IMG/VR virus record: IMGVR_UViG_3300030693_000012
DNA: 64,000 nucleotides
Reading direction: 5' to 3' (one strand)
Source of the DNA: a virus
Below are positions 9,405 to 62,654 of this stretch, piece after piece. The stretch's first letter is position 1, and every line of letters starts with the position of its first letter. Position numbers and translations under genes: made by a program. A model generated the notes under the pieces. The model had not been told where the DNA came from. It did not search any database and saw nothing but the letters and a program-made list of their open reading frames with translations.

Positions 9405-10107
9405 TCTCCACTCTCGGCATCTCGCCGTCCATCAAACCCTTCAGCCGAATCGCCTCTGCGCGCTTGGCCTTCAGCGCCTCCAGGTCGAGGAGATGCTGGT
9501 ACTCCCGCCCAGCCTTCGATCCCTTCAGCGGTGTGGTCGTGCTGCCGATGATCCCGCAGACGCCGCAGCGGTGCAGCTTTGACTGGTGCCGGAAGATGCC
9601 GTCGCAGATATGGGGTCTATCCGTCGCAGAAGGCGGCCCGAAGCGTCCGGCGTCACCCAGGGAATCCTTACCAATCCCACAGCGCCCGAAGAGGCAGCGG
9701 CACATAGGAGCGCCTTTGACGCGGCCCTCCTGAACTTCCTTGCGTAGCTCCAAATACTCATCGACCACCTGCACTGTCTCTTCCATTTCACTCTCCCTCC
9801 GGCGAATCCCATGCGCCAACGCCAACTCGTCCATTTCGCTAGGATTCCGGATTCCGGAATCTGCCTTGATGAACTTTCCCACCCAGTCGCCTATTCGAAC
9901 AGTGGCAATGAGGCAACCTTCGCGGGTCTCTTTCGTAACTTGAGCGTCTGGATATGCCGCTTGCAGAGCGGCAAGGATCCGTTCCTGCCTCCCTGACTTG
10001 CCATAACCACGACAGCCCCAGTGCATGCGCAAAACTCGCGGCGAGTCGAGGGGCCAAATAAGCCTCTCTGCATCGTCGCGAGTCGGTGTGTTATCAGCCA
10101 TTTGCAA
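9397..10107 (-). CDS. Hypothetical Cys-rich protein
   Basis: 236 aa; contains MDELALAHGIRRRE and several Cys pairs. Confidence 0.55.
   Translation of the reverse strand: MQMADNTPTRDDAERLIWPLDSPRVLRMHWGCRGYGKSGRQERILAALQAAYPDAQVTKETREGCLIATVRIGDWVGKFIKADSGIRNPSEMDELALAHGIRRRESEMEETVQVVDEYLELRKEVQEGRVKGAPMCRCLFGRCGIGKDSLGDAGRFGPPSATDRPHICDGIFRHQSKLHRCGVCGIIGSTTTPLKGSKAGREYQHLLDLEALKAKRAEAIRLKGLMDGEMPRVESV
9843..9861. repeat. 19-bp palindrome GATTCCGGAWTCCGGAATC, copy 1
   Basis: Exact match, inside a CDS. Confidence 0.9.
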
Positions 10108-10122
10108 AGCACCTTCAAACCT

Positions 10123-10500
10123 CTACTTGCTGCACGCCTGATTGACGACGGCAACCGCAGCGTCATAGGTGGAGAAGGGAACCGCGCGGAGGTCGCGCTT
10201 CGCTCCGAAATGCTCGTAGGCGAAAGCGTAGAAGGTGCCAACTTGGCCCTCGTCCACATAGCCGCAGCGGCCAGCCACGAAGACGATGGTCAGCTCGTTG
10301 GCCGCAAGGCGCCGGCCAGGTGCTTCGCTGAACGAAGCGCCCAGTGGAACCGGGGCCGGAGCCAACAGAGGGTCAGCAACCGGTCCGGCGAACGAGACGT
10401 TGACGGCCGTCGGGACGCCAACCTTGGATTGGGCGAATATGCCCGGTGCTACGAGGATGAAAACGATGAGGTAAAAACCGATCTTCCTGATGCTCTGCAT
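10123..10500 (-). CDS. Exported hypothetical protein
   Basis: Signal peptide MQSIRKIGFYLIVFILVAPGIFA|Q. Confidence 0.6.
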   Translation of the reverse strand: MQSIRKIGFYLIVFILVAPGIFAQSKVGVPTAVNVSFAGPVADPLLAPAPVPLGASFSEAPGRRLAANELTIVFVAGRCGYVDEGQVGTFYAFAYEHFGAKRDLRAVPFSTYDAAVAVVNQACSK

Positions 10501-10558
10501 GACGTCCTCCTGCGGACGATTTCAGTTGAGAAGAGTTAGAGGCCCGAGGGGCGGCTGG

Positions 10559-11083
10559 TTAGGCCGCCGCCTGATGCTTTGCGTTGTGACGCTTGCGGGC
10601 GTCGCGAAGGGCCTCGGCTGCGCTGGTGCCGGTCCCGATGATGAGCTTGCCGTCCTCGACGAAGCGACCCGTCTCGCTGGTCGTGACGCCAACCCGGAAG
10701 CGGCCATTCGTCGCCCAGACCACAGCCTTGTCGCCAAGGAAGCTCTGAGCCTCGGCCAGCGCCTGATCCTCGGTGACCTTGTTAGCGCGGGGGGTGACGG
10801 TCGCCTCGAAGGTCTTGCTGTCGACGGTCGCCTCATAGGCCGCGTCATCGTCCTGATCGAGCATGACCGTCTCGATCTCCAGGTTCTCGACCTGCTCATC
10901 CAGCTCCTCAGCCGTGCGGATCACTACGGCCAACTTCGCGCGGTTCGTCTTGCCCTCGGGCATTTCGAAGCGATAGCCCTTGGGGCTGGTGAACTTCTGG
11001 CCGTCAAACACGATGCCGTAACGGCGGGTAGCTGCGCCGAGCTGGAAGCTGCTGATGTCCTTGATTTTCTTGGTGATTGCCAT
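10559..11083 (-). CDS. Early hypothetical protein
   Basis: 174 aa; first gene after a promoter cassette, with RBS GAGGA. Confidence 0.75.
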   Translation of the reverse strand: MAITKKIKDISSFQLGAATRRYGIVFDGQKFTSPKGYRFEMPEGKTNRAKLAVVIRTAEELDEQVENLEIETVMLDQDDDAAYEATVDSKTFEATVTPRANKVTEDQALAEAQSFLGDKAVVWATNGRFRVGVTTSETGRFVEDGKLIIGTGTSAAEALRDARKRHNAKHQAAA

Positions 11084-11135
11084 TGTCTTGTCCTCGGTTC
11101 TCAGTTTGGATTTTTACTACTCTCTCACTGTCTAA

Positions 11136-11176
11136 ATACTACTAAACTAGACCCGAAGAGTCAACAAAAATCGACA
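11136..11176 (-). promoter_or_regulatory. Early promoter cassette (TTGACT-N17-TAGTAT)
   Basis: Shared upstream block CGATTTTTG and leader CCAAACTGAGAACCGAGGA. Confidence 0.8.
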
Positions 11177-11275: not shown

Positions 11276-11470
11276 TCATTCTGGCTCCTTCATTTGAGAT
11301 TCTGCAGCTTGGCCGATGGCGTCGACGAAGACCCGCGCCTCGTCGGTCTTGGGGAGGACGAGGATCGTCCACGACATGAGCTGGAACGCCACGACCATCC
11401 GCAAACCATTCCAGATCCTCCGCAGGGATTCGCGGATCGGGGTCGGCGGCCGCTGATTGAGGAGGATCAC
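11276..11470 (-). CDS. Small hypothetical protein
   Basis: Overlaps the stop of the J-domain gene. Confidence 0.45.
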   Translation of the reverse strand: MILLNQRPPTPIRESLRRIWNGLRMVVAFQLMSWTILVLPKTDEARVFVDAIGQAAESQMKEPE

Positions 11471-12057
11471 AACCGCTCCCCGCGAATGGCGAGACCACGG
11501 CGTCGAGCCTCAGTTAGCTCTTGAAATTGCGCCACCGCGTCCGCCGCTTTATTCACATCTGGATGGAGGGTGCGGGCAAGTTTACGGAATGCGCCCTCGA
11601 TCTCCTCGATGCTGGCAGAAGCTGGTATATCCAGCACCTTCCACCATGCCCGCCGAGCACCAGTCTCCAACTGCATGAATCCTTTGAACGCTCGCTCCAG
11701 CATCTCCGACGCTCCCCAGCGCTCGATCCCGCGCAGAGCTTCGATCGTCTTGCCGATGGCCTGAAGGTTCTCCGCGATGGTATCGAAGCGGTCGCTGGCG
11801 AACACCACCTGCTTCTCGTTTCGCGTGAAGTAGACTGCGACGCCAGCGTCGACCGGGTCGCGATCCATCCGCATCGTGCCGTCCTGCTTCAGTGGCACAT
11901 TGCTGGATATCACCATGGCCTTGCCGCCCATACGACGAACCTCGGCTTCTACGAACTTATGAGCCTTGGAAGTGGTCGTAGAGAAGTTCGACTCTCCGGG
12001 GTTTGCAGTACGCGGCCAACCTTCCGGCCATTCCAGGGGATAGGCGCTTACGCTCAT
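11467..12057 (-). CDS. Phage J-domain (DnaJ-like) protein
   Basis: N-terminal AYPLEWPEGWPRT; C-terminal WWKVLDI...AFRKLARTLHPDV J-domain with HPD. Confidence 0.9.
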   Translation of the reverse strand: MSVSAYPLEWPEGWPRTANPGESNFSTTTSKAHKFVEAEVRRMGGKAMVISSNVPLKQDGTMRMDRDPVDAGVAVYFTRNEKQVVFASDRFDTIAENLQAIGKTIEALRGIERWGASEMLERAFKGFMQLETGARRAWWKVLDIPASASIEEIEGAFRKLARTLHPDVNKAADAVAQFQELTEARRRGLAIRGERL

Positions 12058-12438
12058 CGCGCCCCCAGCAGCATTCCGCCCTTGCGAGGCAAGAGCGAGC
12101 GCTTCACAGGGATACGAAGGCGGCATCCAGCGATGACGACATCCGCCCAGCTTCCGCGGTAGAGCGCGATGCTTTCGGCTTCGACTTCGGTGGTGGTGCG
12201 TTCGTCGATCACGACGGCGCGAGCGCGGCGGCCGCTGGCTGTCGGGCTGACGAGGGCGTGATACCGGGGAAGTGTTTCTACGATCTTGAGACGTGCCATA
12301 AAACCTCCAGCGCGGGCTGCTTCTCTTTCCTCACAAGGCCCGAAGGCTGCGGAGAACGTTGACATTTGACGCCGTTCCAGACGGTCGCACCCGCTGAAGT
12401 GGCGGGAGCGAGCGAGGCAAATCACCCGCTCCCGTGGA

Positions 12439-12999
12439 TTACTCGTCGCTGCCAGCAGCAGCTTCCTTGCCGGACTTCTTCGCAGCCTTCGCCGTCTTCT
12501 CCGCAGGAGCGTCCTGCAAATCGAGCGTGCCCTGAACCTCGTGAGCGCGAAGGAAGATCGAGCCCTTGAGGTTCTGCAGCGCCCAGCCTACGATCGCCTG
12601 CCCGACCGGCCCTTCAGCGCGGACGGTCGTCGAGAAGGTGAGGTACAGCTCCTTGACGGAGCCCTCCTGCTCGGTGGGGCGGAAGACCTGCAGCCCGGTG
12701 AGGCCACACGAGGGGAAGGTCTGATCGGGAACCGTGTGCCCGGGCGTCATGTACGCTTCGAGCGTGGCAAAGAACTCCGAGCTGACCTTGGCCTGAGTGA
12801 TGCCGTTATTGTGGTCGCCGATGACCTTAGCTGCGGACTTCACGCACTTCGGGCAGAGCTCGAGGGTTTCGGGAGTGAGCGGAACTTCAAAGTCCAGGCG
12901 AAGGCGGGTCTCACCCTCGCTGTTCTTCTTCGGGCCCCAGTTGGCGAGGGTCACTGGGATCGGTTCGGGGGAGTTTTGCAAGAAGCGTTCTTGTGCCAT
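12439..12999 (-). CDS. Hypothetical protein
   Basis: 186 aa with good RBS and plausible composition. Confidence 0.7.
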   Translation of the reverse strand: MAQERFLQNSPEPIPVTLANWGPKKNSEGETRLRLDFEVPLTPETLELCPKCVKSAAKVIGDHNNGITQAKVSSEFFATLEAYMTPGHTVPDQTFPSCGLTGLQVFRPTEQEGSVKELYLTFSTTVRAEGPVGQAIVGWALQNLKGSIFLRAHEVQGTLDLQDAPAEKTAKAAKKSGKEAAAGSDE

Positions 13000-13573: not shown

Positions 13574-13751
13574 GCGGCCACGCTCCGACCATCCAGTACA
13601 TCTTTGACGGCTCCCACCACCACTCGCCACTGTGAACCCAGATGCCCAGCGTGAGGACAAGGGCGATGAGGTGGAAGGGCGCGGCGATGAGTGAGATGCC
13701 CACGCCGAAGATAATCCAAAGAACACGGCGGAAGAAAAGACTAGCTGTCAA
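13554..13751 (-). CDS. Small membrane protein
   Basis: Long hydrophobic segment. Confidence 0.5.
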   Translation of the reverse strand: MTASLFFRRVLWIIFGVGISLIAAPFHLIALVLTLGIWVHSGEWWWEPSKMYWMVGAWPRATPRS

Positions 13752-14266
13752 AATAGGCCTCCCTTGACCTTCGGTTTTCCGCCTTTACTCTGGCGCTTCC
13801 ACATCAACTTGGCCCCTTCCCCGCCCGTCGCCAGGCGGGAGAAGACGTCATTCTGATCCCACGGCTCTAGATTCTCCACCATGAACGCGACCAGCTTCCG
13901 GAAGCCCTTCGCGCTCATCTTCCCCTTCCTCAAATTACAAGAGGCGCACGCCGGCACGAGGTTGGTGAGCGCGGCGAGGATCTGAACGTGTAAGCCGGTC
14001 TTGCCCCAGGCGAGGGGTTCTTCATGGTCCGGCACGAGGGTCGCGACGGTGAGCAGGGCGTTGCAGTAGGAGCATTTCACCAGCCCCTCCTTCGTGCCCA
14101 GCACCCACAGCAGCCAGCCACGGAACTCGGCCAGGCTGAACGGTAGACCACCCGACTCCTTGATGCGCTTGCGGTTCGCCATGCTGCCATAGAGAACCCG
14201 TGAGCGAGCATCGAAGATCGCGTCGATCTGGGGCTTGAGGGCTGCGCTCTTGCGTCCGCGCGTCAC
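13748..14266 (-). CDS. HNH endonuclease
   Basis: CSYC...DHEEP...NLVPACASCNLRKG. Confidence 0.85.
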   Translation of the reverse strand: MTRGRKSAALKPQIDAIFDARSRVLYGSMANRKRIKESGGLPFSLAEFRGWLLWVLGTKEGLVKCSYCNALLTVATLVPDHEEPLAWGKTGLHVQILAALTNLVPACASCNLRKGKMSAKGFRKLVAFMVENLEPWDQNDVFSRLATGGEGAKLMWKRQSKGGKPKVKGGLF

Positions 14267-14409
14267 TTCTTGAACCCTCTGGCGATGGCGAACGCCTTCT
14301 GCTTCGCCAAAACGCTAGCCTGATCCTTCACGGCCTCAGCATAGTGATCCCGACAATAGCCGGTCTTGCACACTTGATGGAGGGCGACCTTGCCGCAATG
14401 ACACTTCAT
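14263..14409 (-). CDS. Small zinc-finger protein (48 aa)
   Basis: Manual translation MKCHCGKVALHQVCKTGYCRDHYAEAV...; overlaps both neighbours. Confidence 0.55.
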   Translation of the reverse strand: MKCHCGKVALHQVCKTGYCRDHYAEAVKDQASVLAKQKAFAIARGFKK

Positions 14410-15332
14410 TCTGCCCTCGCTGGCTGCTGGATCCGAAGGTCCTCGGGGAAGTTCTCGATGTCTGCGAAGCCGGTCGTCATATCGAGCTGGGAGAGCTGCT
14501 TCTGAAAGAACGGGACGTCTGCATAGGCCGCCTGATCGCGGATAAACCGGAAGAAGTGGTGCGGTGTCGGACGAATCTTACTCAAGGGGCCACTCTCTCC
14601 GCCCACCACGATCCACGAGATCGGCCCTTCGATGGGCTGGTCGTCGATCGTCAGATGAAGGAAATCGTGAATCCCGCCGCCGCAATCCTCGCACCGACCA
14701 GACTTCGCGTCGAAGCTGAATTTGTGTGGCATCCACGGCCCCAGATTCACCGCCTCAAGTAGAGGCTCCATCGACAGCCAGCGCATGTGAACCGGCCAGA
14801 GGATGATGATGGGCATGCGGAGGTCAGCGTGGCGCTGGGTTCCAATGCTCGCGCCCCAATGAACGTGCTTCATCCGCCCCACAAGCTCCCTCCGCGCCGG
14901 GGAGCTGGTCATGTACTCCAGCGCCCGCCCGACGCGCTTGGTGAGAACCTGATAGATGTGCCAATCGGCCTTCGCCATCACATACATAATCTGGTCGACC
15001 ATGTCGAAGTCCAGCTTCTCGTGGAACAAGTCGCTCATTGAATTTACAAAGATCCGCCGCGGCTTCTTCCATTTGATCGGATCGGCCAGGTGCTTCTCGA
15101 TGAAGCTAACTCGCCCAGTCCAAAGCGGCTCCCCGCCCTGAATCACCGTCAACCCTTCGTACGCCTTTCCGGGTCCGGAGAGACGCGGGTGGGACGCTAC
15201 CCTCGCTGCGTAGCAGAATTGACATAGCGGGTCCGATTCCTTTTTCCCGCCGATGGTGTCGATCATTCGACTGCAACCCCGGATCGGTCCCCATGTCGAG
15301 TCCGCCCACGTGATACCCGTTTTCGTTCCCAT
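14406..15332 (-). CDS. Phage Gp37/Gp68 (DUF5131) family protein
   Basis: MGTKTGITWADSTWGPIRGC...CYA...PRRIFVNSMSDLFHE...WIVVGGESG. Confidence 0.9.
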   Translation of the reverse strand: MGTKTGITWADSTWGPIRGCSRMIDTIGGKKESDPLCQFCYAARVASHPRLSGPGKAYEGLTVIQGGEPLWTGRVSFIEKHLADPIKWKKPRRIFVNSMSDLFHEKLDFDMVDQIMYVMAKADWHIYQVLTKRVGRALEYMTSSPARRELVGRMKHVHWGASIGTQRHADLRMPIIILWPVHMRWLSMEPLLEAVNLGPWMPHKFSFDAKSGRCEDCGGGIHDFLHLTIDDQPIEGPISWIVVGGESGPLSKIRPTPHHFFRFIRDQAAYADVPFFQKQLSQLDMTTGFADIENFPEDLRIQQPARAE

Positions 15333-15696
15333 AGAAAGCACCCTTCTTGAGCCTGAGATTGCGTGCGACGGTGTTTCGGTGGATGCCCAGCACGTCAGCC
15401 GCGGCGCTCTGGTTTCCCTTGCACGCGCGAACGGTCGCCAGGATGACCTCGCGGAGCAGAGCGTCCTTGAGAGAGCCGAAGCTGTCGGCCTTGCGGACGA
15501 GCGACATGAGGTAGGCGTCGCGCATCGACCGGCTGGGGAGGCGGAGCGCTGCATCGCGCCACGCCCTCGCCGCCGTTCCAGCCCTGCCGAGTATCACCTT
15601 GCCGTCGCGGATGACGAAGCAGCCAGCGTCCAGCTCGACGCATTGCGCCAAGTGGCGGGACTCGAGGACGAGCGCCATTGCTGCGATCGGCGTCAT
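15106..15696 (-). CDS. Fis-like helix-turn-helix protein (C-terminus overlaps the next gene)
   Basis: GNQSAAADVLGIHRNTVARNLR resembles the Fis/HTH_8 motif. Confidence 0.7.
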   Translation of the reverse strand: MTPIAAMALVLESRHLAQCVELDAGCFVIRDGKVILGRAGTAARAWRDAALRLPSRSMRDAYLMSLVRKADSFGSLKDALLREVILATVRACKGNQSAAADVLGIHRNTVARNLRLKKGAFYGNENGYHVGGLDMGTDPGLQSNDRHHRREKGIGPAMSILLRSEGSVPPASLRTRKGVRRVDGDSGRGAALDWAS

Positions 15697-15975: not shown

Positions 15976-16302
15976 TCAGCTCTTTCTCGGAACAGCTTTC
16001 GGTTGGTGGGCATACCGGTGGCAGTCGCGGCAGCCGTAGAGTAGGTTGTCCAGAGCGTCATCGCCGCCCGCTCCGGTGGACAGAATGTGCATACCGTCGC
16101 CTTGGACCGGCGGTATCCATCGTTTGCAGATGCCCTCGCAGCGGTTGTTCGCTCTCTGGGCCAACTCCTCGCGCCGCCGATCCCAAGCCTTCTGAGTGAC
16201 GCAATACTCGCGAAACCCCCGAGGGTGGGCGGCGTCCGGAATCCTCTGAACGCCGTCCACCACGGGGTACTTCCCTACAGCCTTGCGCCGAACGACGCCC
16301 AT
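15976..16302 (-). CDS. HNH-like endonuclease
   Basis: RCEGIC...H...DDALDNLLYGCRDCH. Confidence 0.7.
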   Translation of the reverse strand: MGVVRRKAVGKYPVVDGVQRIPDAAHPRGFREYCVTQKAWDRRREELAQRANNRCEGICKRWIPPVQGDGMHILSTGAGGDDALDNLLYGCRDCHRYAHQPKAVPRKS

Positions 16303-17282
16303 TACAGGACGAGATAAGCGGCGGTGACCGTTCCCTCGCCCTCACAGGTGAGACAGGGAAGATCGACGTTATCGCTCCGCTCTCCCGACCCATGGCAAGT
16401 TGGGCATTCGATGGAGTCGGCGGGCGTCAAGATCTCCTCGTCATGGCGGGTGGCATACCCTCCGTCTTCCTCGCCGTCGATCGAACCTTCGTCATCCGGG
16501 ACCGTCCGCATGCGCTCCTTCTCTTTCGCCGCCCCGCTCCGCCCCTCGGCCTCCGAAGCTGCCAGGCTCTCCTCGTACTCCGCGCCGTAGGTGGCCTCGT
16601 ACTCTTGACACATCGACTGGAACCAACGGTCGGTGAATGGAAGCGGGTTGGGGTTCTTGCCCTCTTCCAGCGTCACATCCTCGCGGGTGACGTGAACGGC
16701 GATGGCAGCGCACCGCTGCATCATGGCGTCGGTGTCCGCATTGAACTCGTACTGGCGCCGGACGAGGACGACCGCGCCGCCGGGAACGTGCCGGCCAGCT
16801 TCCGACTCCGCCTTCGCGTGCAGCGCCGGGGCTTCCTTGAAGACTTCCTTCTTGAACTCGGCCGCCGAGAGGGTCTTGGCTTGCACGATGTGGGTCGCCG
16901 TGATGGGGATATTGGCTTTCTTCATCTGGGCCAGAGCGGTCGCGTTGCCCTGCGTCATGCCCCGGACATCCTCGCGGCTCACAGTCTCGTCCTTGACCAG
17001 CAGCTTGAAGACACGCATGGCCTCGAAGACCTGCGTCTTGCCATTGCGGTCCGGCAGCCGGGCCTTGATGTAATCCTCGAACACCGGGATACCGAGGGCG
17101 GTGTGATAGCCCTTGGTGCGGGCTTCGTCGAACATCTCACCGAGGGCTGTCCAGTCTCGGTACACGCGCTCGACGGTGGTAGTGATCCGCGCGTCGAGCT
17201 TCTGGGCCGCTTTCAGAAAGCGGACATCAATGGGGTCAGGGGTGGTTTCGACGAACTGGGCGGGCTTGGGAACGAGTTGCAT
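16302..17282 (-). CDS. Hypothetical protein with acidic region and C-terminal DnaJ-type zinc-finger repeats
   Basis: RBS GGAGG before MQLVPK; CPTCHGSG and CLTCEGEG. Confidence 0.75.
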   Translation of the reverse strand: MQLVPKPAQFVETTPDPIDVRFLKAAQKLDARITTTVERVYRDWTALGEMFDEARTKGYHTALGIPVFEDYIKARLPDRNGKTQVFEAMRVFKLLVKDETVSREDVRGMTQGNATALAQMKKANIPITATHIVQAKTLSAAEFKKEVFKEAPALHAKAESEAGRHVPGGAVVLVRRQYEFNADTDAMMQRCAAIAVHVTREDVTLEEGKNPNPLPFTDRWFQSMCQEYEATYGAEYEESLAASEAEGRSGAAKEKERMRTVPDDEGSIDGEEDGGYATRHDEEILTPADSIECPTCHGSGERSDNVDLPCLTCEGEGTVTAAYLVL

Positions 17283-17330
17283 GTGGTCCTCCGGGGTTGC
17301 GCTCCGCGAGAGCGTCTGGGTGAGACTCAA

Positions 17331-17358
17331 ATACTATCAAACTGAGTGGGGAAGTCAA
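17331..17358 (-). promoter_or_regulatory. Promoter TTGACT-N16-TAGTAT
   Basis: Same hexamers as the early promoter family. Confidence 0.65.
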
Positions 17359-17497
17359 GGCATGAGAGCGACACGCATCGCCACCAACCAATCGAGGTTC
17401 GCCACCGATCCGCCCTCCGGGAACCATGTGATCCAGTAATAACCGGACAACGGACCGCCAGGCGAACCTATCCACATTCGAGTAACCCTGCGCTTCG

Positions 17498-18271
17498 TCA
17501 CAGCTTGACCTCGATTCCGGATTCCGGAATAATCCCCTGCAGAAGCTTCTGTGCCGACGTGAGGTGACCCTTCGGCTCGCCCGCTCCCAGGCGGCGGAAG
17601 GTCTTCGCAGACTCCGAGACCTTGGCCCAACGCGCGTACTCAGCCAGGAAGTCTCGGCGGCGGAACGGGAACGCTTCGGGCGGGATGGCTTTCAGCTTTA
17701 CCCAGCCCCCCAGACGCGCTACAGAGTCCTTCAGGCGCTCCGGCACGTCCGGAACCTCCTCGACCACCTTGCAGGAGCAGACAGAGGCCACGTTGGAGCT
17801 GCCATGCGCTTTCACGACCATCCCAGACCCGGTGCAGAGCGGGCAATCAGCCAGGGGAGGATTCACGAACCGGCGAAGCTCGATGCCATCCCCGACCGGG
17901 CGACCGAACTTCTCCGCCAGTTTGACCGCCTCATCCCACGCGGCCACACCCTCGACGGACTCAGCTTCGTCGCCCATCACAAGCCCGGCTTTCTTCAGGA
18001 TGTCTCCCAACACCAGCTTCGGAGGGTACCCGTTCGAGCTGATCGACTCGCGGCGGCAGCGCGCCAGCGCCACATCGATCTGCCGGTCCTCCAGGTGGCA
18101 AAGGTCGAGCGCCATGACCTTCAGCGACTCCGGGGACAGCTCAGTCCCCATCGCCCCAGCGGTAGCCCCCAGCCGATCCACTATGGCCTTGAGTCTTTGC
18201 GGCGATTTCATCGAGCTCGTTGAGGACTTGGGCGACGGCGTTGCGGGTACGATCTCCGGGGGTCTTTCCAT
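17498..18271 (-). CDS. Probable helicase loader / replication partner protein
   Basis: Follows the initiator; helical N-terminus, CPLCTGSG...CSC zinc motif; start uncertain. Confidence 0.5.
   Translation of the reverse strand: MERPPEIVPATPSPKSSTSSMKSPQRLKAIVDRLGATAGAMGTELSPESLKVMALDLCHLEDRQIDVALARCRRESISSNGYPPKLVLGDILKKAGLVMGDEAESVEGVAAWDEAVKLAEKFGRPVGDGIELRRFVNPPLADCPLCTGSGMVVKAHGSSNVASVCSCKVVEEVPDVPERLKDSVARLGGWVKLKAIPPEAFPFRRRDFLAEYARWAKVSESAKTFRRLGAGEPKGHLTSAQKLLQGIIPESGIEVKL
17513..17531. repeat. 19-bp palindrome, copy 2 (18/19 match)
   Basis: GATTCCGGATTCCGGAATA at the 3' end of a CDS. Confidence 0.85.
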
Positions 18272-19112
18272 GTGATCCTCCTTCGGGTTCAATCTTGCTG
18301 AACTGGTTGAGCGGGGCTTTGATGTAATTCGGTAGCTTCGGAATGAAGAACTCCGGCGCCTCTCCTGCGTTGATGTTATCCGACTTGAAGCGGTTGCGGA
18401 CGCAGGTGAGCCACTGGTCCGCCGTCCACTTCGGCCGCTTCTTCAGCTCTGCCTTGAGCCGAACAAAGGCGAGGCCAACCCAGGCACAGTCGACTCCCGG
18501 ATTCGCCAACTCCCAGAGTCGGTCGATCTCGTCGATCACACTTTTCCTCAGATCATCCGGAGAGATCATCACCTCCGCCTCGAAGAGGGGAGGTGTAGTT
18601 GCTTCTGGTTTACTGTTTATTGTTTTCTTCTTCCTATTATGGGATGCGTCCTCTGGCGTACCCGGTAGTGCAGCGCTGGCATACCCCCCCCCTTCTACAA
18701 CGGGGTTAGACACTACTATTTGCTGTTTCTGGCGTACCCCCTCTTCGGAGATAGGTTCCGGCTTTTCCGCAACATCAACAACCTTCCCAGATTGTGGAAA
18801 GCGCAGCTCGCAAAGCTTATAGAGGTTCACGCCGCCGCTCAATTTTCCCGACTCAATGACGATCATTTTCGCGTCGACCAGGACCTGAATTTCACGCTGA
18901 GTCGTCCGGAGGCTGATGCCGGCGAGCTTGGACAGCTTCGCGGCGCTGATGAAGGTTGTGGGCGCGTTGTAGCAATGCCTCGCCATGACCGAGTAGACGG
19001 CGTAAGCGAACACACCGATCTTCGCGAGATGGTCGTCGATCACGACGTTGTCGATTTGGAAGAAGTCTCGGGAGCGCATATCCCGGAGAACGAGCCGGTC
19101 AGAGTGAAGCAT
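18141..19112 (-). CDS. Phage replication initiator (N-terminal winged HTH)
   Basis: FFQIDN...AFAVYSVMARH...ISAAKLSKLAGISLRTTQREIQVLVDAKMI; low-complexity linker; C-terminal domain. Confidence 0.75.
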   Translation of the reverse strand: MLHSDRLVLRDMRSRDFFQIDNVVIDDHLAKIGVFAYAVYSVMARHCYNAPTTFISAAKLSKLAGISLRTTQREIQVLVDAKMIVIESGKLSGGVNLYKLCELRFPQSGKVVDVAEKPEPISEEGVRQKQQIVVSNPVVEGGGYASAALPGTPEDASHNRKKKTINSKPEATTPPLFEAEVMISPDDLRKSVIDEIDRLWELANPGVDCAWVGLAFVRLKAELKKRPKWTADQWLTCVRNRFKSDNINAGEAPEFFIPKLPNYIKAPLNQFSKIEPEGGSHGKTPGDRTRNAVAQVLNELDEIAAKTQGHSGSAGGYRWGDGD

Positions 19113-19196
19113 GGGCGGCCCTCAATGTCTCGATATCGCTGGCGTCCAGAGCAAACCACATCTGATGGACAAACAAACCTGCCAAGGCATCGTATT

Positions 19197-19832
19197 TCAT
19201 TGCTCGATCAACTCCGGCGTGGACTGCGCTGCTTCCATATAGCGAACGGCCAGCGTAGCACAGTCCGACGCGAGGTCGGGGTAGCGGTGCTGGCGGATGG
19301 TTTGGGTGGCGACGAGCATGTAGGACCACGGGGCCATGGGGGACGCCCACGCCTCGATGAAGATGTACTCGAAGGTATCGCTGCCGGTCGCGTCGAGGGC
19401 CACGCGCCACTCGTAGCTGTCGAAGCACCGCTCGGCCAGCTCATCGCCCAGCTCGTCCCCTATGAGGCGGTAGACGCGCACGGTCTTGTCCTGCACGTTG
19501 TCGATCTCCCCGAACACAGCGAGGTCGCCATAGATCTTCCAGAACTCGCCCTTTCCCTCTAGCCGGGGCAAGGCGGCGTCGAAGTCGAGGCCGCAATAGA
19601 AATCAAACTTCCCGGAAACGATCTCGTCCACAGAGTCACCTACGCGAAGGTTGAGCAGGGCATCCTTGAACGCGACGCCGGCCTCCTCCTCCAGTGTGGG
19701 GTTCTCGCGCTTCGCCACCCGGCCGCGGATGTACTCCTCCCAGGTCTCTTCCTCGTCACCATCGCGGGTCTTGAGAACCCCGTTCCACGCTTGGAATGCC
19801 GCTAGCTCGCTGATTTTGGCCTTCACCATCAC
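19197..19832 (-). CDS. PD-(D/E)xK-like recombination protein, catalytic motif apparently degenerate
   Basis: Follows the AAA ATPase; GEID followed by VYRL where DxK is expected. Confidence 0.5.
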   Translation of the reverse strand: MMVKAKISELAAFQAWNGVLKTRDGDEEETWEEYIRGRVAKRENPTLEEEAGVAFKDALLNLRVGDSVDEIVSGKFDFYCGLDFDAALPRLEGKGEFWKIYGDLAVFGEIDNVQDKTVRVYRLIGDELGDELAERCFDSYEWRVALDATGSDTFEYIFIEAWASPMAPWSYMLVATQTIRQHRYPDLASDCATLAVRYMEAAQSTPELIEQ

Positions 19833-20719
19833 TCTCCCTCCTCGACGAACGCGCCGAGCGCGGTGTCGTACTTCAGCCCGTAGTTGCCAGCAGCCTGATT
19901 GAGAGCGTAGCGCACCTCCGTCGATTCCTTTTTCACTTCCTTGATCATCTCGTTGAACGCGTCCGTGCTGTCGAGCGCGGCGAACTTCACCTTCCAGGCG
20001 TCGGTCGCGATTCGGTTCTTGGTCATCTCCTCCGAGCTGCTGTTGATGCTGGCCTTGATGTCGCGGATGACGTCAGCGAGGAAGTTGGGTGCCTTGAGCG
20101 GCGACGGCACAGTCAGGATCTCGAAGGCGGCCGGGTTCTTGCCGAGCGAACCCTCGCGCGGGGAGAAGTCCAGCTTCCGCTCCGCGCCGTCGATGTAGAG
20201 CTTCCCCATGGCGTCGCAGACCTTGTAGATTTCAGCCTTGGATCCGCCCTGAATGTCGAGCCGTTCCTTGAGGATGTCGCCCTCCTGCTTCTCATCCATG
20301 TGGGAGATCAGCACGACGTCCTTGCCGAAGCCGCGCATCTGATCCAGCCAGGCGGTGAACCTGCTCTTGGCGATCCCCCAGCCCTTGAGGTCGAGCGAGC
20401 CGCCGTTGCCCCGCTTGGCGTTGCCCGCGATGATGTCCCGGCTGAGGGCGTCGATCGCACGACCGGCGGTGTCGACGACGAGGGTGTTGAAGTCCTCCAG
20501 GTCGTCGCGTGTCATCCTCGCGATGTCGCTCCAGTCCGCCACCTGCACGCTGGCCTTGCGATTCTTCGCGCGGTGCGCGCCCTTGTCGAAGTCGAGGAGG
20601 AGAGGCTTGTCAGCGGTGAAGCCGAGCGTGGTCTTGCCCAACCCAGGAAGGGCATAGATTCCCATGACGATCTCGTTGATGACGATGACGTCGCTGGCGG
20701 CGGTAATTCGTAATGCCAT
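19829..20719 (-). CDS. Phage AAA ATPase (AAA_24/Sak4-like annealase)
   Basis: Walker A YALPGLGKTT, LLLDFDKG, Walker B LVVDT. Confidence 0.85.
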   Translation of the reverse strand: MALRITAASDVIVINEIVMGIYALPGLGKTTLGFTADKPLLLDFDKGAHRAKNRKASVQVADWSDIARMTRDDLEDFNTLVVDTAGRAIDALSRDIIAGNAKRGNGGSLDLKGWGIAKSRFTAWLDQMRGFGKDVVLISHMDEKQEGDILKERLDIQGGSKAEIYKVCDAMGKLYIDGAERKLDFSPREGSLGKNPAAFEILTVPSPLKAPNFLADVIRDIKASINSSSEEMTKNRIATDAWKVKFAALDSTDAFNEMIKEVKKESTEVRYALNQAAGNYGLKYDTALGAFVEEGE

Positions 20720-20825
20720 GGCGTAGCTCCGTGGAAGGGTTCGCGCGGAGACGACGGGGCTTTCTAGGCTCTCTGGCGCGCCCGCGAGGCGCAAAACAAA
20801 CGGCCAACCGCGAACGGCTGACCGG

Positions 20826-21026
20826 TTACTTCTTCAGTACGAGGTTGCCCGAAATGAACTGCTCCGCCAGCCAGAGAAAGAAGGGGCTGTTTTTCATCCC
20901 TTGCTTCTTGGCGGCCTTCGCGATGCGATCGCGCTGGTCGTCATCCTTCGGATACACGTTGAAGATGGTTGGCTTGCCCTGACGTTTATCGGGGGCTTGG
21001 GCCGTCTGCGTGCTGGTGGTTTCCAT
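20826..21026 (-). CDS. Ribbon-helix-helix-like transcription regulator, probably leaderless
   Basis: IFNVYP strand followed by two helices (RDRIAKAAKK; NSPFFLWLAEQFI); ATG 6 nt after a -10 hexamer. Confidence 0.6.
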   Translation of the reverse strand: METTSTQTAQAPDKRQGKPTIFNVYPKDDDQRDRIAKAAKKQGMKNSPFFLWLAEQFISGNLVLKK

Positions 21027-21032
21027 GAGCCG

Positions 21033-21061
21033 ATACTACCTAATCAGTAGTATCCAGTCAA
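21033..21061 (-). promoter_or_regulatory. Promoter TTGACT-N17-TAGTAT overlapped by operator ATACTAC-N7-GTAGTAT
   Basis: Inverted repeat at 21033-21053. Confidence 0.75.
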
Positions 21062-21767: not shown

Positions 21768-21807
21768 TGTGTTTCCTCGTTTCTCAGTTTGGATAACCAC
21801 TATCTAA

Positions 21808-21848
21808 ATACTACTAAACCGGTCCGCAGAGTCAACAAAAATCGACAC
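21808..21848 (-). promoter_or_regulatory. Early promoter cassette (TTGACT-N16-TAGTAT)
   Basis: Shared GTGTCGATTTTTG block and leader TAGTGGTTATCCAAACTGAGAAACGAGGA. Confidence 0.8.
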
Positions 21849-24726: not shown

Positions 24727-24760
24727 TTGATTTGCTCTCCATTCTTGCCCCGCGAGGGCC

Positions 24761-25317: not shown

Positions 25318-25354
25318 ATACTACTATTCCAGCCAGCGGAGTCAACAAAAATCG
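25318..25354 (-). promoter_or_regulatory. Early promoter cassette (TTGACT-N16-TAGTAT)
   Basis: Shared CGATTTTTG block upstream of -35. Confidence 0.75.
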
Positions 25355-25368: not shown

Positions 25369-25614
25369 TTATTTTCCGGCCCGCTTCATGCGCTGCTCGA
25401 TGATGATGGCGATGGTCTGCTCCCTGCTATTCGGGTAGCTCACACCATTCCGACATGCAACGTCGAAGGTCTGGCAAATCTCCCTCGCCGCCTCTGCAGC
25501 TATTTTCGCAGTGTCAAGGATTCCGGATTCCGGAATCGCAAGCGACCGGAGAGGCGACATGCAGGTGCCATGGAGGCCGCAGCAGTTTGGGGTGAAGCAG
25601 CTCTCACACTTCAT
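25369..25614 (-). CDS. Small Cys-rich hypothetical protein
   Basis: MKCESC...CCGLHGTC; contains the 19-bp palindrome in frame (IPESGI). Confidence 0.5.
   Translation of the reverse strand: MKCESCFTPNCCGLHGTCMSPLRSLAIPESGILDTAKIAAEAAREICQTFDVACRNGVSYPNSREQTIAIIIEQRMKRAGK
25519..25537. repeat. 19-bp palindrome, copy 3
   Basis: Exact match. Confidence 0.9.
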
Positions 25615-34940: not shown

Positions 34941-34969
34941 ACTATACCGATTCCGGATTCCGGAATCAA
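34941..34969 (-). promoter_or_regulatory. Promoter TTGATT-N17-TATAGT overlapped by the 19-bp palindrome
   Basis: Hexamer spacing read directly. Confidence 0.55.
34949..34967. repeat. 19-bp palindrome, copy 4
   Basis: Exact match, intergenic. Confidence 0.9.
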
Positions 34970-46720: not shown

Positions 46721-47907
46721 TAGGTCACGACCGAAACGTTCGCGAGAAGCCCGACGGCGGCCGCGTTGAATGCGATCGAGATGTCCGCCGAGGAACCGGG
46801 CGACGGGGCAGTCCCGATATACAGGGAGGTGATGACGAAGGTCTGCTGCTGAGGCGTGCCGGGGAGACCGGCCTCCGCGACGAGCCAGGCGTCATAGACG
46901 TCCTCGCCGATCGCAAGCTCGTTGATGAAGTTGACGATGGCAGCCTGAATAAGCGGCTCCGTCGAACCCACCCAGCCGGGCAGGACAGTAACGTTGACGA
47001 TGGCATAAATCTCGACCTGCGCCAGCTCGAAGAAGTTGATGGTGATGGGCAGCCCAGACGGGTCAGCAATCGTCTCTGAAGTCGTGCCGTAGGTTCCACA
47101 CCCTTGGTCCTTCTCGAGAAGAATAGCGGTGGCGATGGCCGTGGCGTCGCCACCCTGCACGACGGCGCAGATCGAATGGCTGGGGATGCCGTTGCTGTCC
47201 GTGGTGGCGCTGTCGTTCTCGTACACCAAGGAGCGAACCACGCCGGGGATGTCAGCCACCGCGCCCATGATCGCGCCGATGGAGGTCTGCGATGGGATGG
47301 CCGTCGAGATAGTCTGGCGCTGGCGGACGGCCCCATCGGTTTCGGTGGAGGATCCGATATCGGAAGCAGCCGGATTCGTGATCGTGTCCCACCCGAGCTG
47401 CGGGGTGTAGATGGTAGTGATCGTGTTCGGCGGGGCGACAATGGCTCCGACGGCGGCGCATGTCACGGTCACGGGTATGGTTCCGGACGACGGAATCAGC
47501 ACGGACGCGGGCAGGTTCCAAAGATTCGGCGGGGTCGCAGTGTCCTGCGCTTGGCCGTTGACGATGGTGAAGCCAGGCGCGCCCACAACATTGCAGATGG
47601 CGGTGCTGTTGGTTCCAGCTTCGCGGGCCATGCCGTTTATCTTGATGGCGGTGTCGAGCTGGACGCCCACGGCCGTCTGAGGGCTGTAGGCATTGAAGGC
47701 GGCGACGGCGGCGACGTTCGAATCGTAGATCGCTTGAGCTTCGATCGCCAGGAGCTGATAGTCCTGCGTGCCGGTGGCGAGATACACGTCATCACCCCAA
47801 ATGCTCTGATAGGTCGCGATCTTCGAGTTGATGATGTCCTGAAGAGCGGGGATCGTGATGCCGGTGGGTGTGATGGTGGGACCGAGGGTCGCCAGTGGGT
47901 AGGTCAT
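46720..47907 (-). CDS. Baseplate J-like protein
   Basis: ETDGAVRQR...IPGVVRSLVYEND...PSHSICAVVQGG. Confidence 0.9.
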   Translation of the reverse strand: MTYPLATLGPTITPTGITIPALQDIINSKIATYQSIWGDDVYLATGTQDYQLLAIEAQAIYDSNVAAVAAFNAYSPQTAVGVQLDTAIKINGMAREAGTNSTAICNVVGAPGFTIVNGQAQDTATPPNLWNLPASVLIPSSGTIPVTVTCAAVGAIVAPPNTITTIYTPQLGWDTITNPAASDIGSSTETDGAVRQRQTISTAIPSQTSIGAIMGAVADIPGVVRSLVYENDSATTDSNGIPSHSICAVVQGGDATAIATAILLEKDQGCGTYGTTSETIADPSGLPITINFFELAQVEIYAIVNVTVLPGWVGSTEPLIQAAIVNFINELAIGEDVYDAWLVAEAGLPGTPQQQTFVITSLYIGTAPSPGSSADISIAFNAAAVGLLANVSVVT

Positions 47908-48287: not shown

Positions 48288-48310
48288 ATCCTAGCTTGCC
48301 CTGCAAGCCG

Positions 48311-59949: not shown

Positions 59950-60037
59950 TGCTTATTCTCCCGGAATCAATCTGGTGATGCATACCGGGGTGCCGCCCCG
60001 GCTCGGGTTAGAACGAAAGGTTGGTCGAGACCGCGCC

Positions 60038-60619
60038 TTAGATGTTGTAGGCGATCTCACCTACGCCGGTGGAATCAACGCCACCCTGATAGGTCGTAGT
60101 TGCGGGAAGTGCGAAGCCAGAACCGCCAGGGTTCGCCACTTCGAATCCCCCCTGTACGTGCGGGGCGGAAGAGGCGGCGGTCCAGATATACACGGTGCCA
60201 CCCTTGACGGGCGTTCCGTTGATCTGGGCCATGATGTAGCCCGAGCGAAGGATGTTGGCAGCGCCGATGTCGATTCCGCCGGCTACGCCGAGGGCGACGT
60301 TCAGGCTTCCCGACCACTGCTGGAAGGGGTAGGTCCGGACGGTGATGCCGTAGATCGTGACGTCGCCTACAGTCAGGGGACGTACGCCCTGCGAGGTGGC
60401 GTCGATGATGACCGGCTGCCCGAAGACCGTCGGAGGATTCGCCGCGTCAATGAGCGTCGGCTCGATGGTGGGAGTGGGGTTGATCCGAGAGATCGTTCCC
60501 GGAACGCCAGCGCCCACGCGGTAGGTGATCGCGATGTCGCGAACCTTGTGACGCCCGAGGCGCTTGCCAGCAACGGGCTTTGTGCGGAAGGCTGCGAGAA
60601 TCGAATCGAGGAAGGTCAT
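60038..60619 (-). CDS. Head decoration/cement protein
   Basis: GVPGTISR...YGITVRTYP...LRSGYIMAQ; between protease and capsid. Confidence 0.8.
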   Translation of the reverse strand: MTFLDSILAAFRTKPVAGKRLGRHKVRDIAITYRVGAGVPGTISRINPTPTIEPTLIDAANPPTVFGQPVIIDATSQGVRPLTVGDVTIYGITVRTYPFQQWSGSLNVALGVAGGIDIGAANILRSGYIMAQINGTPVKGGTVYIWTAASSAPHVQGGFEVANPGGSGFALPATTTYQGGVDSTGVGEIAYNI

Positions 60620-60682
60620 TGGAGAGTCCCTTTCGGTGCAAAGTCAGTGCTACGGTGCTGCGGTGAACTTCAGAGGCCCGAG

Positions 60683-62098
60683 CTAATTGCTCTCTTTCGC
60701 CCAGAAAGCGGCGGCCTTGGCATTGAACTCGGCGGGCGTGGTGGCCGGAGCGTTCAAGTCGAGAACTTTGGTCTTGCCATCATTCGTGCCACGATTGGCT
60801 TCGGAATGCTTGGCGGCATCGTTCACCAGGCGCATCGTCGCGCCCACGCCGTTGAACAGGTTCCGAACCTCGCCACAGCTCAGGCCAGTGATCGAGTCCG
60901 CGGTGAAGACCTTGGAGCCAGCATGCTCGGCGACGATGACTGCACCCGCCGGGGTCATAGCTGCGATCCCCAGAGCCTTGCGGCGGAACTGGCAGATCTG
61001 ATCCAGAGTCTTCTTGGGAGAGAGAGCGGCGTCGAGGGTCGGCTTCTTGATGCCAGGCGCGATGATCTCGGCGGTCGCGATGACCTCTTGGAAGCTGTCG
61101 ACGAAGTGAGCGGAATCGCGGGCCTTGCGTGCGTCCTTGGTGCCGGTCTCCTTCTCCAGCTCCTCCTCCTCCGCATCCGTGACATCCTCGTCGCGGTGCT
61201 TCTTGTCGCGGGCCTCTTCCTTCTCTTCCAGATCCTTCACGCGCTTGTCGAAGGCTGCGAACTTGGCATCGTAGGCTTCGAATTTGGCGTCGAACGCGGC
61301 TGCATCTTCGGTGCCGCCCAGGTGGACATGAACGTCGCCACCCTCACCCTCGGCTGCATCCTCGACCTTCTCAAGCTCCGCATCGAGAGCCTTTTCCAAC
61401 TCCTTCTCGTTCTCGGCGTCCTTGACGGGATCGCCGGTGGAGACGCGGGAGTCGCGGTAGCGCCGGATGATGCCAGCCTTGAGCGACTTGCGGACGGAAT
61501 CGAATGTGAGAGTCTTCGTCTTTGCCACGGTGTTTCCTCCAAAGCCCTTTCGGGCGTGATCCCTAACCGCACACTGGGGGCCGCAGCGCCCAGCTTCTAC
61601 AACTGCTACGTGGTTTCCCACGATCTCGATCTGGTTACCTCGGCCGATGTCCGTCTCTTCATACTCGGCGTCGTAACCACAACTCACTTCGACCTTGCCA
61701 GCCAGAATCAGGTCGATCATCTCTTGGTCCGTGATGAGCAGGTCAGCGATGAGGAGGTGGTCCTCGATGCCTTCCCCGCGTCGCGGGTCCAACACAGTCC
61801 CCTTGGCAAGCAGCGCCCAGGTTTCCGGTGTTACATCCTCCATGGGGTGGTCGTTTACGACCGGTTTCCCGTGGAAGCTCGCTATCGTGTCCGGGTGGAA
61901 AACGTCTTTCGCATCCCGGCTAACCCAAGCGATCCCGTCTGGCCCAACTTCTACTGGCGACTCGCCGGGGCCATAGAGCTGAACCCCAGTCCGTGCAATC
62001 GGTACATTACGGCAGAGAAGGAACCCTTCGGGCGTCTTCTCCTGATTTGGCCCCAGCTTCTCGACTGTGTAGAAGCGAGACTTTGCATCGCGTGACAT
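60683..62098 (-). CDS. Prohead protease/scaffold (DUF2213-like)
   Basis: TPEGFLLCRNVPIARTG...HP...EVSCGY...GNHVAVVEAGRCG; acidic scaffold-like tail. Confidence 0.9.
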   Translation of the reverse strand: MSRDAKSRFYTVEKLGPNQEKTPEGFLLCRNVPIARTGVQLYGPGESPVEVGPDGIAWVSRDAKDVFHPDTIASFHGKPVVNDHPMEDVTPETWALLAKGTVLDPRRGEGIEDHLLIADLLITDQEMIDLILAGKVEVSCGYDAEYEETDIGRGNQIEIVGNHVAVVEAGRCGPQCAVRDHARKGFGGNTVAKTKTLTFDSVRKSLKAGIIRRYRDSRVSTGDPVKDAENEKELEKALDAELEKVEDAAEGEGGDVHVHLGGTEDAAAFDAKFEAYDAKFAAFDKRVKDLEEKEEARDKKHRDEDVTDAEEEELEKETGTKDARKARDSAHFVDSFQEVIATAEIIAPGIKKPTLDAALSPKKTLDQICQFRRKALGIAAMTPAGAVIVAEHAGSKVFTADSITGLSCGEVRNLFNGVGATMRLVNDAAKHSEANRGTNDGKTKVLDLNAPATTPAEFNAKAAAFWAKESN

Positions 62099-62107
62099 GG
62101 CAGCTCC

Positions 62108-62572
62108 TTACAGGAGCGCCTTGTTGGGCGAACCTACGATGCGAAACAGAACGTTTGTCGCGGTGAATGTACCGCTGGTCACGATTCGAATCTTCACAAG
62201 GTTCGCGACGTTCGCAATGTAGATCCCATTGACAGTCGCGGTCTCAGTGACGGCGGTGGTGCCGGGTACGGCGATGGCCGCCTGAAGGATCGGGAAGAAG
62301 TTCACTCCGTCGTTGGATCCCTGCACTGCCCAGGTGGCGGTCGTGAGGGCGGTGCCCACCACGCTGATCGAGATTCCGGACTGGCCGAAGGTCGTAAAGG
62401 CTCCGCTGGTCTGCGAGGTCGCAGTCGCGGTGAAGGTGCCAATCAGGACGTTCGGGCTTACGGTCTGCGTCGCGTTCGGCAGATAGGTCGTCTGGGCCAG
62501 AGCTGGGGAAGCGCCAGAGAGCGCGATGGCGATGGCTGCGATGGCGGAGAGAACGATGCTTTTGATCTTCAC
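62108..62572 (-). CDS. Exported beta-sandwich protein in the head module
   Basis: Signal MKIKSIVLSAIAAIAIALSGASPALA|Q; WAVQGSNDGVNF motif; RBS GGAG. Confidence 0.75.
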   Translation of the reverse strand: MKIKSIVLSAIAAIAIALSGASPALAQTTYLPNATQTVSPNVLIGTFTATATSQTSGAFTTFGQSGISISVVGTALTTATWAVQGSNDGVNFFPILQAAIAVPGTTAVTETATVNGIYIANVANLVKIRIVTSGTFTATNVLFRIVGSPNKALL

Positions 62573-62635
62573 TTGGTTGCTCCTGTGTACGGCTGATGTC
62601 CCTGAAAGGTTTATATCCCGGGTGTCAACCCCCAA

Positions 62636-62654
62636 GATTCCGGAATCCGGAATC
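62636..62654. repeat. 19-bp palindrome, copy 5
   Basis: Exact match (central A), intergenic. Confidence 0.9.

Follow-up and report, generated by a model that had tools for sequence, protein, structure and literature searches.

A dispersed palindrome with invariant arms in a family of uncultured peat-soil myoviruses

The element analysed here is a short palindrome dispersed in the genome of a contractile-tailed phage known from IMG/VR virus record IMGVR_UViG_3300030693_000012; the whole 64.0-kb stretch of DNA analysed is referred to as the window. In the window, the element takes the form of the 19-mer GATTCCGGAWTCCGGAATC, a 9-1-9 inverted repeat (GATTCCGGA-W-TCCGGAATC) present in 5 copies, compared with a mean chance expectation of 0.06 in dinucleotide-preserving shuffles, none of which (0/100) reached 5. 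Comparison with related phages reduces the functional unit from the 19-mer to a shorter, more general consensus, TTCCGG-WWW-CCGGAA, with invariant 6-bp arms and an A/T-only centre. By the same sequence comparison, the palindrome is a family trait of uncultured peat-soil myoviruses. We tentatively read it, with a confidence just short of even, as a docking site on duplex DNA for a putative dimeric protein, serving as an operator at one early promoter and marking module boundaries elsewhere.

The five window copies (Table 1) are all found where the initial annotation had placed them, including the one at 17513, which matches the 19-mer at 18 of 19 positions. The 15-bp core TTCCGGAWTCCGGAA is exact in 5/5 copies, and a search allowing up to 2 mismatches revealed no further core copies in the window. 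Immediately outside the element the flanks of these copies are unrelated, and feature neither a common target nor a target duplication. The phage is nearly invariant at positions 17000-36999, where contigs of four peat runs show about 40 variable places, none of which falls within the three palindromes of this segment (about 0.1 expected). Contigs from 24 peat-metagenome runs contain near-identical DNA, and 12 of these runs are possible sources; an assembly artefact, which had been raised as a possibility, is therefore unlikely. A literature search for the motif as a biological element returned none, the matches being primers.

Two positional traits suggested by the window do not extend to the family. 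The first four copies lie 7670, 8006 and 9430 bp apart, in agreement with the 7.7-9.4 kb initially given, but a regular 8-9 kb spacing is not a trait of the element, as copies are irregularly spaced in relatives. Similarly, the absence of copies from the 35-62.6 kb block holds for the window (none at 34968-62635) but not for relatives, which carry many copies in head and tail genes.

Relatives were identified by scanning IMG/VR for the motif. They share 57-76% capsid identity with the window phage, and each carries several copies, mostly at different positions. G001 (complete, 64.8 kb) has 18 exact cores, G005 (complete, 59.4 kb) has 6, and G006, G009 and G003 have 5, 3 and 2, respectively; three exact cores each are found in L140, L143 and L144, and two in L141. 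Motif counts in relatives, which the initial annotation had proposed as a check, thus range from 2 to 18 cores, whereas conservation at orthologous positions is mostly lacking (two sites are shared with G001). The arms are invariant across the approximately 50 copies of these ten phage sequences. Sites with 0, 1 and 2 mismatches number 5/0/0 in the window, 18/2/1 in G001 and 6/1/0 in G005, an all-or-none spectrum, and one-mismatch sites never exceed 2 per genome in the window, G001, G005, G006 and G009. No palindrome other than TTCCGG-N3-CCGGAA is repeated in these genomes, and isolated half-sites are as frequent as expected. The centre is always made of A/T, and its class (AWT, TWA or AAA/TTT) is fixed per lineage. 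For instance, the G005/G006/L141 subclade features TTCCGG-TWA-CCGGAA or TTCCGG-AAA-CCGGAA, extended to ATTTTCCGG...CCGGAAAAT, while AAA/TTT centres are found in L143, L144 and L140, the last being the closest to the window phage by capsid (76%). No copies were found in more distant relatives, including a 47%-GC subclade with equally similar capsids and the closest cultured relative, the Burkholderia phage BgManors32 (0 copies). Single copies occur in about 100 unrelated viral contigs, a number consistent with chance; multi-copy contigs are all relatives.

The position of 50 copies from the ten phage sequences was classified with respect to genes. A stop codon of a substantial open reading frame (ORF) lies at most 40 nt upstream of 22 copies (background 9%, P=7e-11), and in 14 of the 50 this codon ends 1-4 nt before the core (background 0.8%, P=6e-18). 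A Shine-Dalgarno (SD) sequence and a start codon follow within 70 nt in 22/50 copies. Overall, 32 copies adjoin a gene end or start, and the remaining ones, about a third, are located inside genes. In many gaps, the element and the ribosome-binding site make up the entire intergenic region. Copies change position between relatives. The position of copy 5 (62636), upstream of a signal-peptide gene and the head protease gene, is conserved in G001, and both G005 and G006 have a copy just upstream of the head protease gene.

Copy 1 (9843) is probably intergenic: a likely ATG start at 9834 follows 8 nt downstream, and the sequence preceding the copy has a non-coding G+C content at third codon positions (GC3). 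One of the two reading frames initially assigned to the motif within genes, DSGIRN at 9843, is accordingly doubtful, while the other, IPESGI at 17513 and 25519, stands. Copy 2 (17513) forms the last codons of a DUF6475 gene (17498-18292, minus strand), within a 9-residue C-terminal extension that its orthologues do not have. A TTGACA hexamer is located 1 nt beyond the 19-mer of copy 3 (25519) on the minus strand. Protein alignments of relatives illustrate how sites inside genes may arise. In the baseplate wedge protein, G001 reads IPESG where the window phage reads IPSSG and G005 IPSNG; in the tape measure, LSGFRK in G001 replaces DKMQKF in the window phage and G005. These alignments indicate that in-gene copies are made in place by point substitution rather than by insertion, sometimes at the cost of amino-acid changes. 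Since such copies replace pre-existing codons, selection would create sites wherever the coding sequence allows, and the early view that selection acts on the nucleic acid rather than on the protein is supported.

Copy 4 (34949) lies in a sigma70-type promoter, as initially claimed, where it takes up the spacer together with the end of the -35 hexamer; the promoter is confirmed to be on the minus strand. It drives gene 34403-34909 (minus strand), which encodes an Ala/Pro-rich protein of 168 residues. At position 401, G001 carries TTGCTT-N17-TATAGT in identical register and at the same genome position, after the counterpart of gene 34977-35705. The preservation of this register in a relative with about 50% protein identity makes a repressor-operator role at this promoter a reasonable prediction. 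The genes downstream of the two promoters (34403-34909 in the window and 3-350 in G001, both on the minus strand) show no detectable similarity. The products of both are Ala-rich with Pro-rich tails. The dyad falls within a core promoter in the 34949 copy and, in the same register, in G001, but not in the other 48 copies. Copy 5 had been assigned an activator-like position upstream of a TATAAA hexamer; no canonical promoter is present there, as a mere 7 nt separate TTGACA from the TATAAA. In three relatives the site is likewise followed by a TTGAC(A/G) hexamer. Approximately 10 strong sigma70-type promoters, TTGACT-N16/17-TAGTAT, are found in the 11-34 kb region, and almost none in the structural block. 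These are near-identical cassettes, consisting of an A/T-rich upstream element, the promoter and a conserved leader, which head early and middle modules.

Table 1. Palindrome copies, promoters and ordinary hairpins in the window
Feature	Position	Strand	Remarks
Copy 1	9843..9861	n/a	GATTCCGGA-T-TCCGGAATC on the plus strand; exact
Copy 2	17513..17531	n/a	18/19, one outer mismatch; 15-bp core exact
Copy 3	25519..25537	n/a	Exact; inside 81-codon ORF 25369-25614 (-), translated IPESGI
Copy 4	34949..34967	n/a	Exact; intergenic, 9 nt past the stop of gene 34977-35705 (-)
Copy 5	62636..62654	n/a	Exact, centre flipped; intergenic, abuts the TAG stop of gene 62655-62954 (-)
Degenerate match (76%)	47477..47497	n/a	Baseplate-wedge gene, where G001 has a perfect in-gene copy
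Sigma70-type promoter TTGATT-N17-TATAGT	34941..34969	-	Contains copy 4
TTGACA-N7-TATAAA	62610..62628	-	Downstream of copy 5; spacing not of sigma70 type
TTGACT-N16-TAGTAT promoter	17331..17358	-	About 155 nt downstream of copy 2; separate promoter family
TTGACT-N16-TAGTAT promoter cassette	25318..25345	-	About 175 nt downstream of copy 3
Other cassettes	11136-11164, 21033-21061, 21808-21835, 30470-30497, 32944-32971, 33471-33499	-	Same promoter family
Ordinary hairpin CCGGGG-CGGCA-CCCCGG	59984..60002	-	Upstream of the major capsid gene, where six relatives have the palindrome
Ordinary hairpin, 7-bp stem, 3-nt loop, core GCTTGC-AGG-GCAAGC	48293..48309	-	Baseplate junction (palindrome in G005/G006)

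A binding site for a dimeric phage regulator was among the roles first suggested, and we keep it as the leading reading, at the tentative level stated above. A symmetric, sequence-specific dimeric protein would read the 15-bp TTCCGG-WWW-CCGGAA on double-stranded DNA, with each of two subunits contacting a TTCCGG half-site; a bendable A/T triplet would lie between the half-sites, the centres of which are 9 bp apart. Binding at the 34949 promoter would exclude polymerase and turn initiation off. At the minimal gaps between co-directional genes, the protein would act on something other than initiation: RNA polymerase passing a module boundary may be blocked or paused there, or the genome may be marked or organised. 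The same proposal of a role other than initiation has been made for the repeats of Cluster O mycobacteriophages (PMC4351075). Central bases flip between orthologous sites of G005 and G006, and the sense strand carries AAA at some sites and TTT at others; both features are expected of a duplex site with two-fold symmetry.

Several observations weigh against this reading. A canonical promoter lies within 70 nt of just 1/50 family copies, so that the initial description of the motif as occurring at promoters fails for the family. The palindrome is replaced by ordinary RNA hairpins or terminators at three junctions in relatives. The centre is A-rich on the sense strand (31:9 with close duplicates removed, P=0.0014), a bias not predicted for a site that is read in the duplex alone. 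No integrase, repressor, ParB or methyltransferase was identified when nearly all ORFs of at least 80 aa were scanned with Pfam and PHROGs; without integrase and repressor, a lysogeny-type silencing role is unlikely. Finally, no conserved DNA-binding candidate was found among the phage proteins, and three possible readers lose support. The Fis-type helix-turn-helix (HTH) ORF (15696-15106) has no homologue in G001 or G005 and is confined to this phage; neither of the candidates first put forward, ribbon-helix-helix and Fis-like proteins, is supported. A ParB_N-like protein of G001, itself a sub-threshold hit (21.1 bits, cut-off 26.3), has no homologue in the window phage or G005; as it is unshared, and this phage has no ParB-family protein, the idea of a partition site also loses ground. 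The J-domain protein (11467-12126), the best-conserved non-structural protein, has homologues in motif-free phages. Phages that share only this J-domain protein feature a different palindrome, TGGGAA-N3-TTCCCA (L227:14393, 15125; L228:14070, 17799; L229:14071). One of its copies overlaps a TTGGGA...TAGTAT promoter-like element, and looks like an analogous operator of other sequence.

Besides the J-domain protein, those conserved in the window phage, G001 and G005 are the O-like initiator (18141-19112), the DUF6475 protein (17498-18292), TerS (6681-7289), an HNH protein (13748-14266), a 342-aa protein (16302-17330) and one of 186 aa. The 186-aa protein shows structural likeness to uncharacterised phage proteins and, weakly, to DUF669- and FtsK-gamma-bearing clusters; a role like that of single-stranded DNA-binding proteins is a guess. 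Searches with the 342-aa protein gave nothing informative, and a tblastx screen of small shared ORFs returned only noise. A protein reader, if there is one, may be a host factor or belong to the small set of conserved, uncharacterised phage proteins.

The palindrome could act in the transcript rather than in the duplex. We consider it possible, on balance doubtful, that it is a standardised RNA stem-loop with a stem of 6-9 bp and a 3-nt A/U loop, which punctuates polycistronic mRNA and is read by a stem-specific RNA-binding protein or nuclease; such stem-loops would protect upstream segments from 3' exonucleases, provide processing sites or support a factor-dependent stop. Essentially all window genes map to the minus strand, as judged from GC3 periodicity, and with all genes co-directional every copy is transcribed. 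The predicted fold is a stem of 7-13 bp with a three-base loop (-9.5 to -24.9 kcal/mol). The placement of copies just past stop codons and upstream of SD sequences, the sense-strand A excess of the loop (a bias of the same direction, 14:6, is found in Corndog; PMC4351075) and the scarcity of intrinsic terminators in the window all fit this explanation, as do the three junctions at which hairpins interchange. At the scaffold-to-capsid junction, six relatives have the palindrome whereas the window phage, L140, G001 and G009 have ordinary hairpins with differing stems; downstream of the capsid gene, the palindrome of L143 stands where most of the relatives shown have terminator-like hairpins; and at the baseplate junction, G005 and G006 have the palindrome while the window phage has a short ordinary hairpin with a 3-nt loop. 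Structure alone, however, does not explain stems that are invariant in about 50 copies, as neighbouring ordinary hairpins vary freely. The stems are not intrinsic terminators, since no U-tract follows them in the five window copies or in those of relatives, and none was called by a terminator scan. AAA and UUU loops are both present and orthologous loops flip, perfect copies are built inside tape-measure and baseplate genes at an amino-acid cost that is hard to justify for an intercistronic signal, and the promoter-spacer copy is in exact register with the -35 and -10 hexamers. No Rfam family matches the window, and the KH-domain protein of this phage has no blastp match in G001 or G005. For RNA data, none were listed for a 10-kb stretch, and one metatranscriptome run matches a 0.05 share of the sampled words of the capsid gene.

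Three other explanations rank below these two. The palindrome is unlikely to be a recombination linker or a very small mobile palindrome, a crossover point or copied sequence through which related phages would exchange gene cassettes and whose identity would be kept by copying with no reader. Copying would fit the all-or-none spectrum, and accessory gene content is very different among the phages that share the motif. Between G005 and G006, which are about 87% identical, two indels of small genes directly adjoin a palindrome on its upstream side; homology resumes 3 and 9 nt from the site, and one insert lies between a decayed and an intact copy. The latter is found in G006 (25986-26510, reverse complement), where 430 nt with their own terminator separate a decayed ATTTTCCCCGGTAACCAAAAAAC from the intact palindrome; the short form without the insert occurs in G005 (12569-12666) and in L141. 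This indel evidence is suggestive but thin. In-gene copies are local substitutions and not insertions, flanks exhibit no common target duplication or conserved target, homology runs uninterrupted across 3/5 sites shared by G005 and G006, and a second copy is missing at the second indel. No transposase-like protein was detected in Pfam scans, and the Cluster O repeats are involved in few if any rearrangements (PMC4351075). An origin as a by-product of a host repeat, or mimicry of one, is quite unlikely, whether as a host-derived heptamer repeat or as a site for a host factor reading such arrays. The phage comes from peat, and the exact 19-mer, which arises where inverted (GATTCCG)n and (CGGAATC)n heptamer arrays meet, occurs in 52 bacterial genome stretches (L174-L225) where about 4 are expected by estimate. 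Core sites in single metagenome-assembled genomes (MAGs) number 14 in Acidobacteriota, 14 in Opitutaceae, 8 in Planctomycetota and 4 in Isosphaeraceae; in those MAGs the 19-mer is found at gene 3' ends, and three Acidobacteriota MAGs contain 276 to 383 runs of at least 3 GGAATCN units. The exact 19-mer is thus abundant in some MAGs, as the possibility of a common host repeat would have it, but there it always lies inside longer heptamer arrays, whereas phage copies are isolated and have unique flanks. The TWA and AAA centres and the outer bases of relatives do not fit the heptamer, and the MAG that was checked had no TWA or AAA sites. We therefore read the bacterial matches as array by-products and not as the same element. 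A search of 401 Acidobacteriota genomes did not find the capsid protein. A methylation-sensing or restriction site, based on a GAWTC triplet of CcrM/HinfI type or on paired TCCGGA/CCGG words, is very improbable. The 19-mer of this phage holds three GAWTC and two TCCGGA words, and the 7-bp period of the former had suggested methylation sensing. Relatives keep only TTCCGG...CCGGAA: GANTC is missing from the TWA and AAA centre classes, and G001 does not retain the outer GA/TC bases. In every genome tested, GANTC, CCGG and TCCGGA are as frequent as expected, as are the half-sites, and no word is depleted, so that there is no restriction or methylation signature; methyltransferases, as noted, are missing from the Pfam matches.

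Two side observations concern hairpins and heptamers of this kind. In the capsid leader (59984-60002 in the window, and the corresponding hairpins of L140, G001 and G009), the stem differs in each phage while the loop begins with CGG in all, which suggests a conserved RNA structure. [quoted passage not shown]

The closest parallel to the palindrome is found in the Cluster O mycobacteriophages, Corndog and its relatives, which carry more than 30 dispersed copies of the 17-bp repeat TGTTCGG-NNN-CCGAACA (PMC4351075). The 7-bp arms of this repeat never vary, AAA/TTT predominates at its centre, and about a third of its copies lie in genes and few near promoters (PMC4351075). Cluster O phages are not temperate, and the authors inferred a dimeric DNA-binding protein acting beyond initiation (PMC4351075); our literature search found no later paper explaining the repeat. 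In both elements exactly 3 bp lie between short inverted arms, which measure 7 bp in Cluster O and 6-9 bp in the peat phages; the arms are invariant, degenerate sites are very few, and the variable A/T-rich centre has no strict orientation to transcription and a mild sense-strand A excess. Both are dispersed, with many copies intergenic or near gene starts, about a third in genes and few at promoters, and both occur in phages with strong SigA/sigma70-type promoters and no integrase known (Cluster O) or detected (here). The two differ in arm sequence and lineage, a contractile-tailed peat phage being unrelated to a Mycobacterium siphovirus, and in copy number (5-18 here, more than 30 there). 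The centre described here is A/T-only and of a lineage-specific class, one copy lies in a promoter spacer, and the element is spread over a family at 40-60% protein identity rather than over five near-identical genomes. All architectural features are matched while sequence and ancestry are not, and the likeness is one of kind and not of descent. A bolder view, which we rate as rather unlikely, is that the 6-3-6 element and the Cluster O 7-3-7 repeat are convergent examples of one undescribed system, a stem-loop mark read sequence-specifically at the RNA or single-strand level, whose copies may also be cassette crossover points. If this were true, such convergent marks in and between lytic-phage genes could be read, for example, by a dedicated endoribonuclease, akin to Cas6 reading CRISPR repeats.

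Other known systems resemble the element in part. Stoperators are reportedly the L5 gp71 sites described by Brown et al. in 1997. Like the stoperators of Cluster A mycobacteriophages (PMC9283540), the palindrome consists of many near-identical sites in short intergenic gaps genome-wide, one of which overlaps the -35 hexamer of an early promoter; stoperator-bound protein acts on elongating polymerase. In contrast, stoperators are asymmetric and oriented, whereas the palindrome is perfect apart from its centre, which occurs in both orientations; the protein that binds stoperators is a monomeric immunity repressor made by temperate phages, and scans of the present phage found neither a repressor nor an integrase. 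The KorB operators (OB) of plasmid RK2 and ParB/parS-type sites require a ParB-family reader. The OB sites are likewise perfectly conserved, all-or-none palindromes, about a dozen per approximately 60 kb, some at promoters and some far from them or in genes. Unlike these systems, this phage has no detected ParB-family protein, and the ParB_N-like protein is restricted to G001. Bacterial intergenic heptamer repeats of the GGGNATC type, found in Xanthomonas and Nostoc, are a known, unexplained class (PMC4692102). The 19-mer is letter-for-letter the junction of two inverted GGAATCC-type arrays and, like such repeats, is found just after stop codons between co-directional genes. The bacterial repeats, however, are tandem arrays of variable length, while the phage element is a single fixed unit that does not fit the heptamer in related phages. 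Stoperators, KorB operators, intrinsic terminators and heptamer repeats each miss at least one defining feature.

The window encodes a head protease, a major capsid protein, a sheath, a tape measure and baseplate proteins. An 8.6-kb IMG/VR contig (L009/L030) is identical to the window ends (1-2261 and 60022-64000) and joins them via 2334 extra bases; this gives a genome of about 66.3 kb, circular or circularly permuted and read throughout on one strand, of which the window covers 64.0 kb. The missing 2.3 kb contains no palindrome copies. A megablast search revealed no close relative in the cultured-phage collection, the best cultured match being a Burkholderia myovirus with 42% sheath identity. 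Pfam/PHROGs matches include an O-like replication initiator, TerS, RNase H, a ligase, an AAA_24 ATPase, DUF5131 and DUF932 proteins, a KH protein, about 7 HNH-type nuclease domains and the Fis-type HTH protein.

HNH-type domains are found in six window genes (5321-5764, 13748-14266, 15976-16302, 24761-25348, 28293-28892 and 29399-30424), one of which also carries an AP2 domain and one NUMOD4, while one domain lies within the ATP-dependent ligase. This load of homing-type nucleases is unusually high for a 66-kb phage. The Fis-family HTH gene (15106-15696, minus strand) runs stop-free for about 230 nt into the DUF5131 gene (14406-15554, minus strand), the start of which is at about 15332. The coding-like GC3 signal changes frame where the HTH ORF enters the DUF5131 gene; a long overlap, a frameshift or a sequence error is possible. 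A 39-nt direct repeat (9001-9039 and 9793-9831, 90% identical) encodes the peptide DELA(A/L)AHGIRRRE in two adjacent small genes, one of which begins directly after palindrome copy 1. An apparent plus-strand gene at 25698-26348 was discarded, as it is the antisense of the RNase H gene.

Dispersed, perfectly conserved palindromes occur in several unrelated phage groups, and the lytic-phage cases have no known reader or function. The present case adds an entire uncultured soil-phage family with constant arms and a centre that changes from lineage to lineage, which provides a handle on the reader via covariation. It also adds direct evidence of new copies created in place inside genes, and junctions where the palindrome and ordinary hairpins interchange. 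The reader, if found, would provide a compact and portable protein-DNA (or protein-RNA) recognition pair, and would show how one-strand, promoter-poor phage genomes are regulated or organised.

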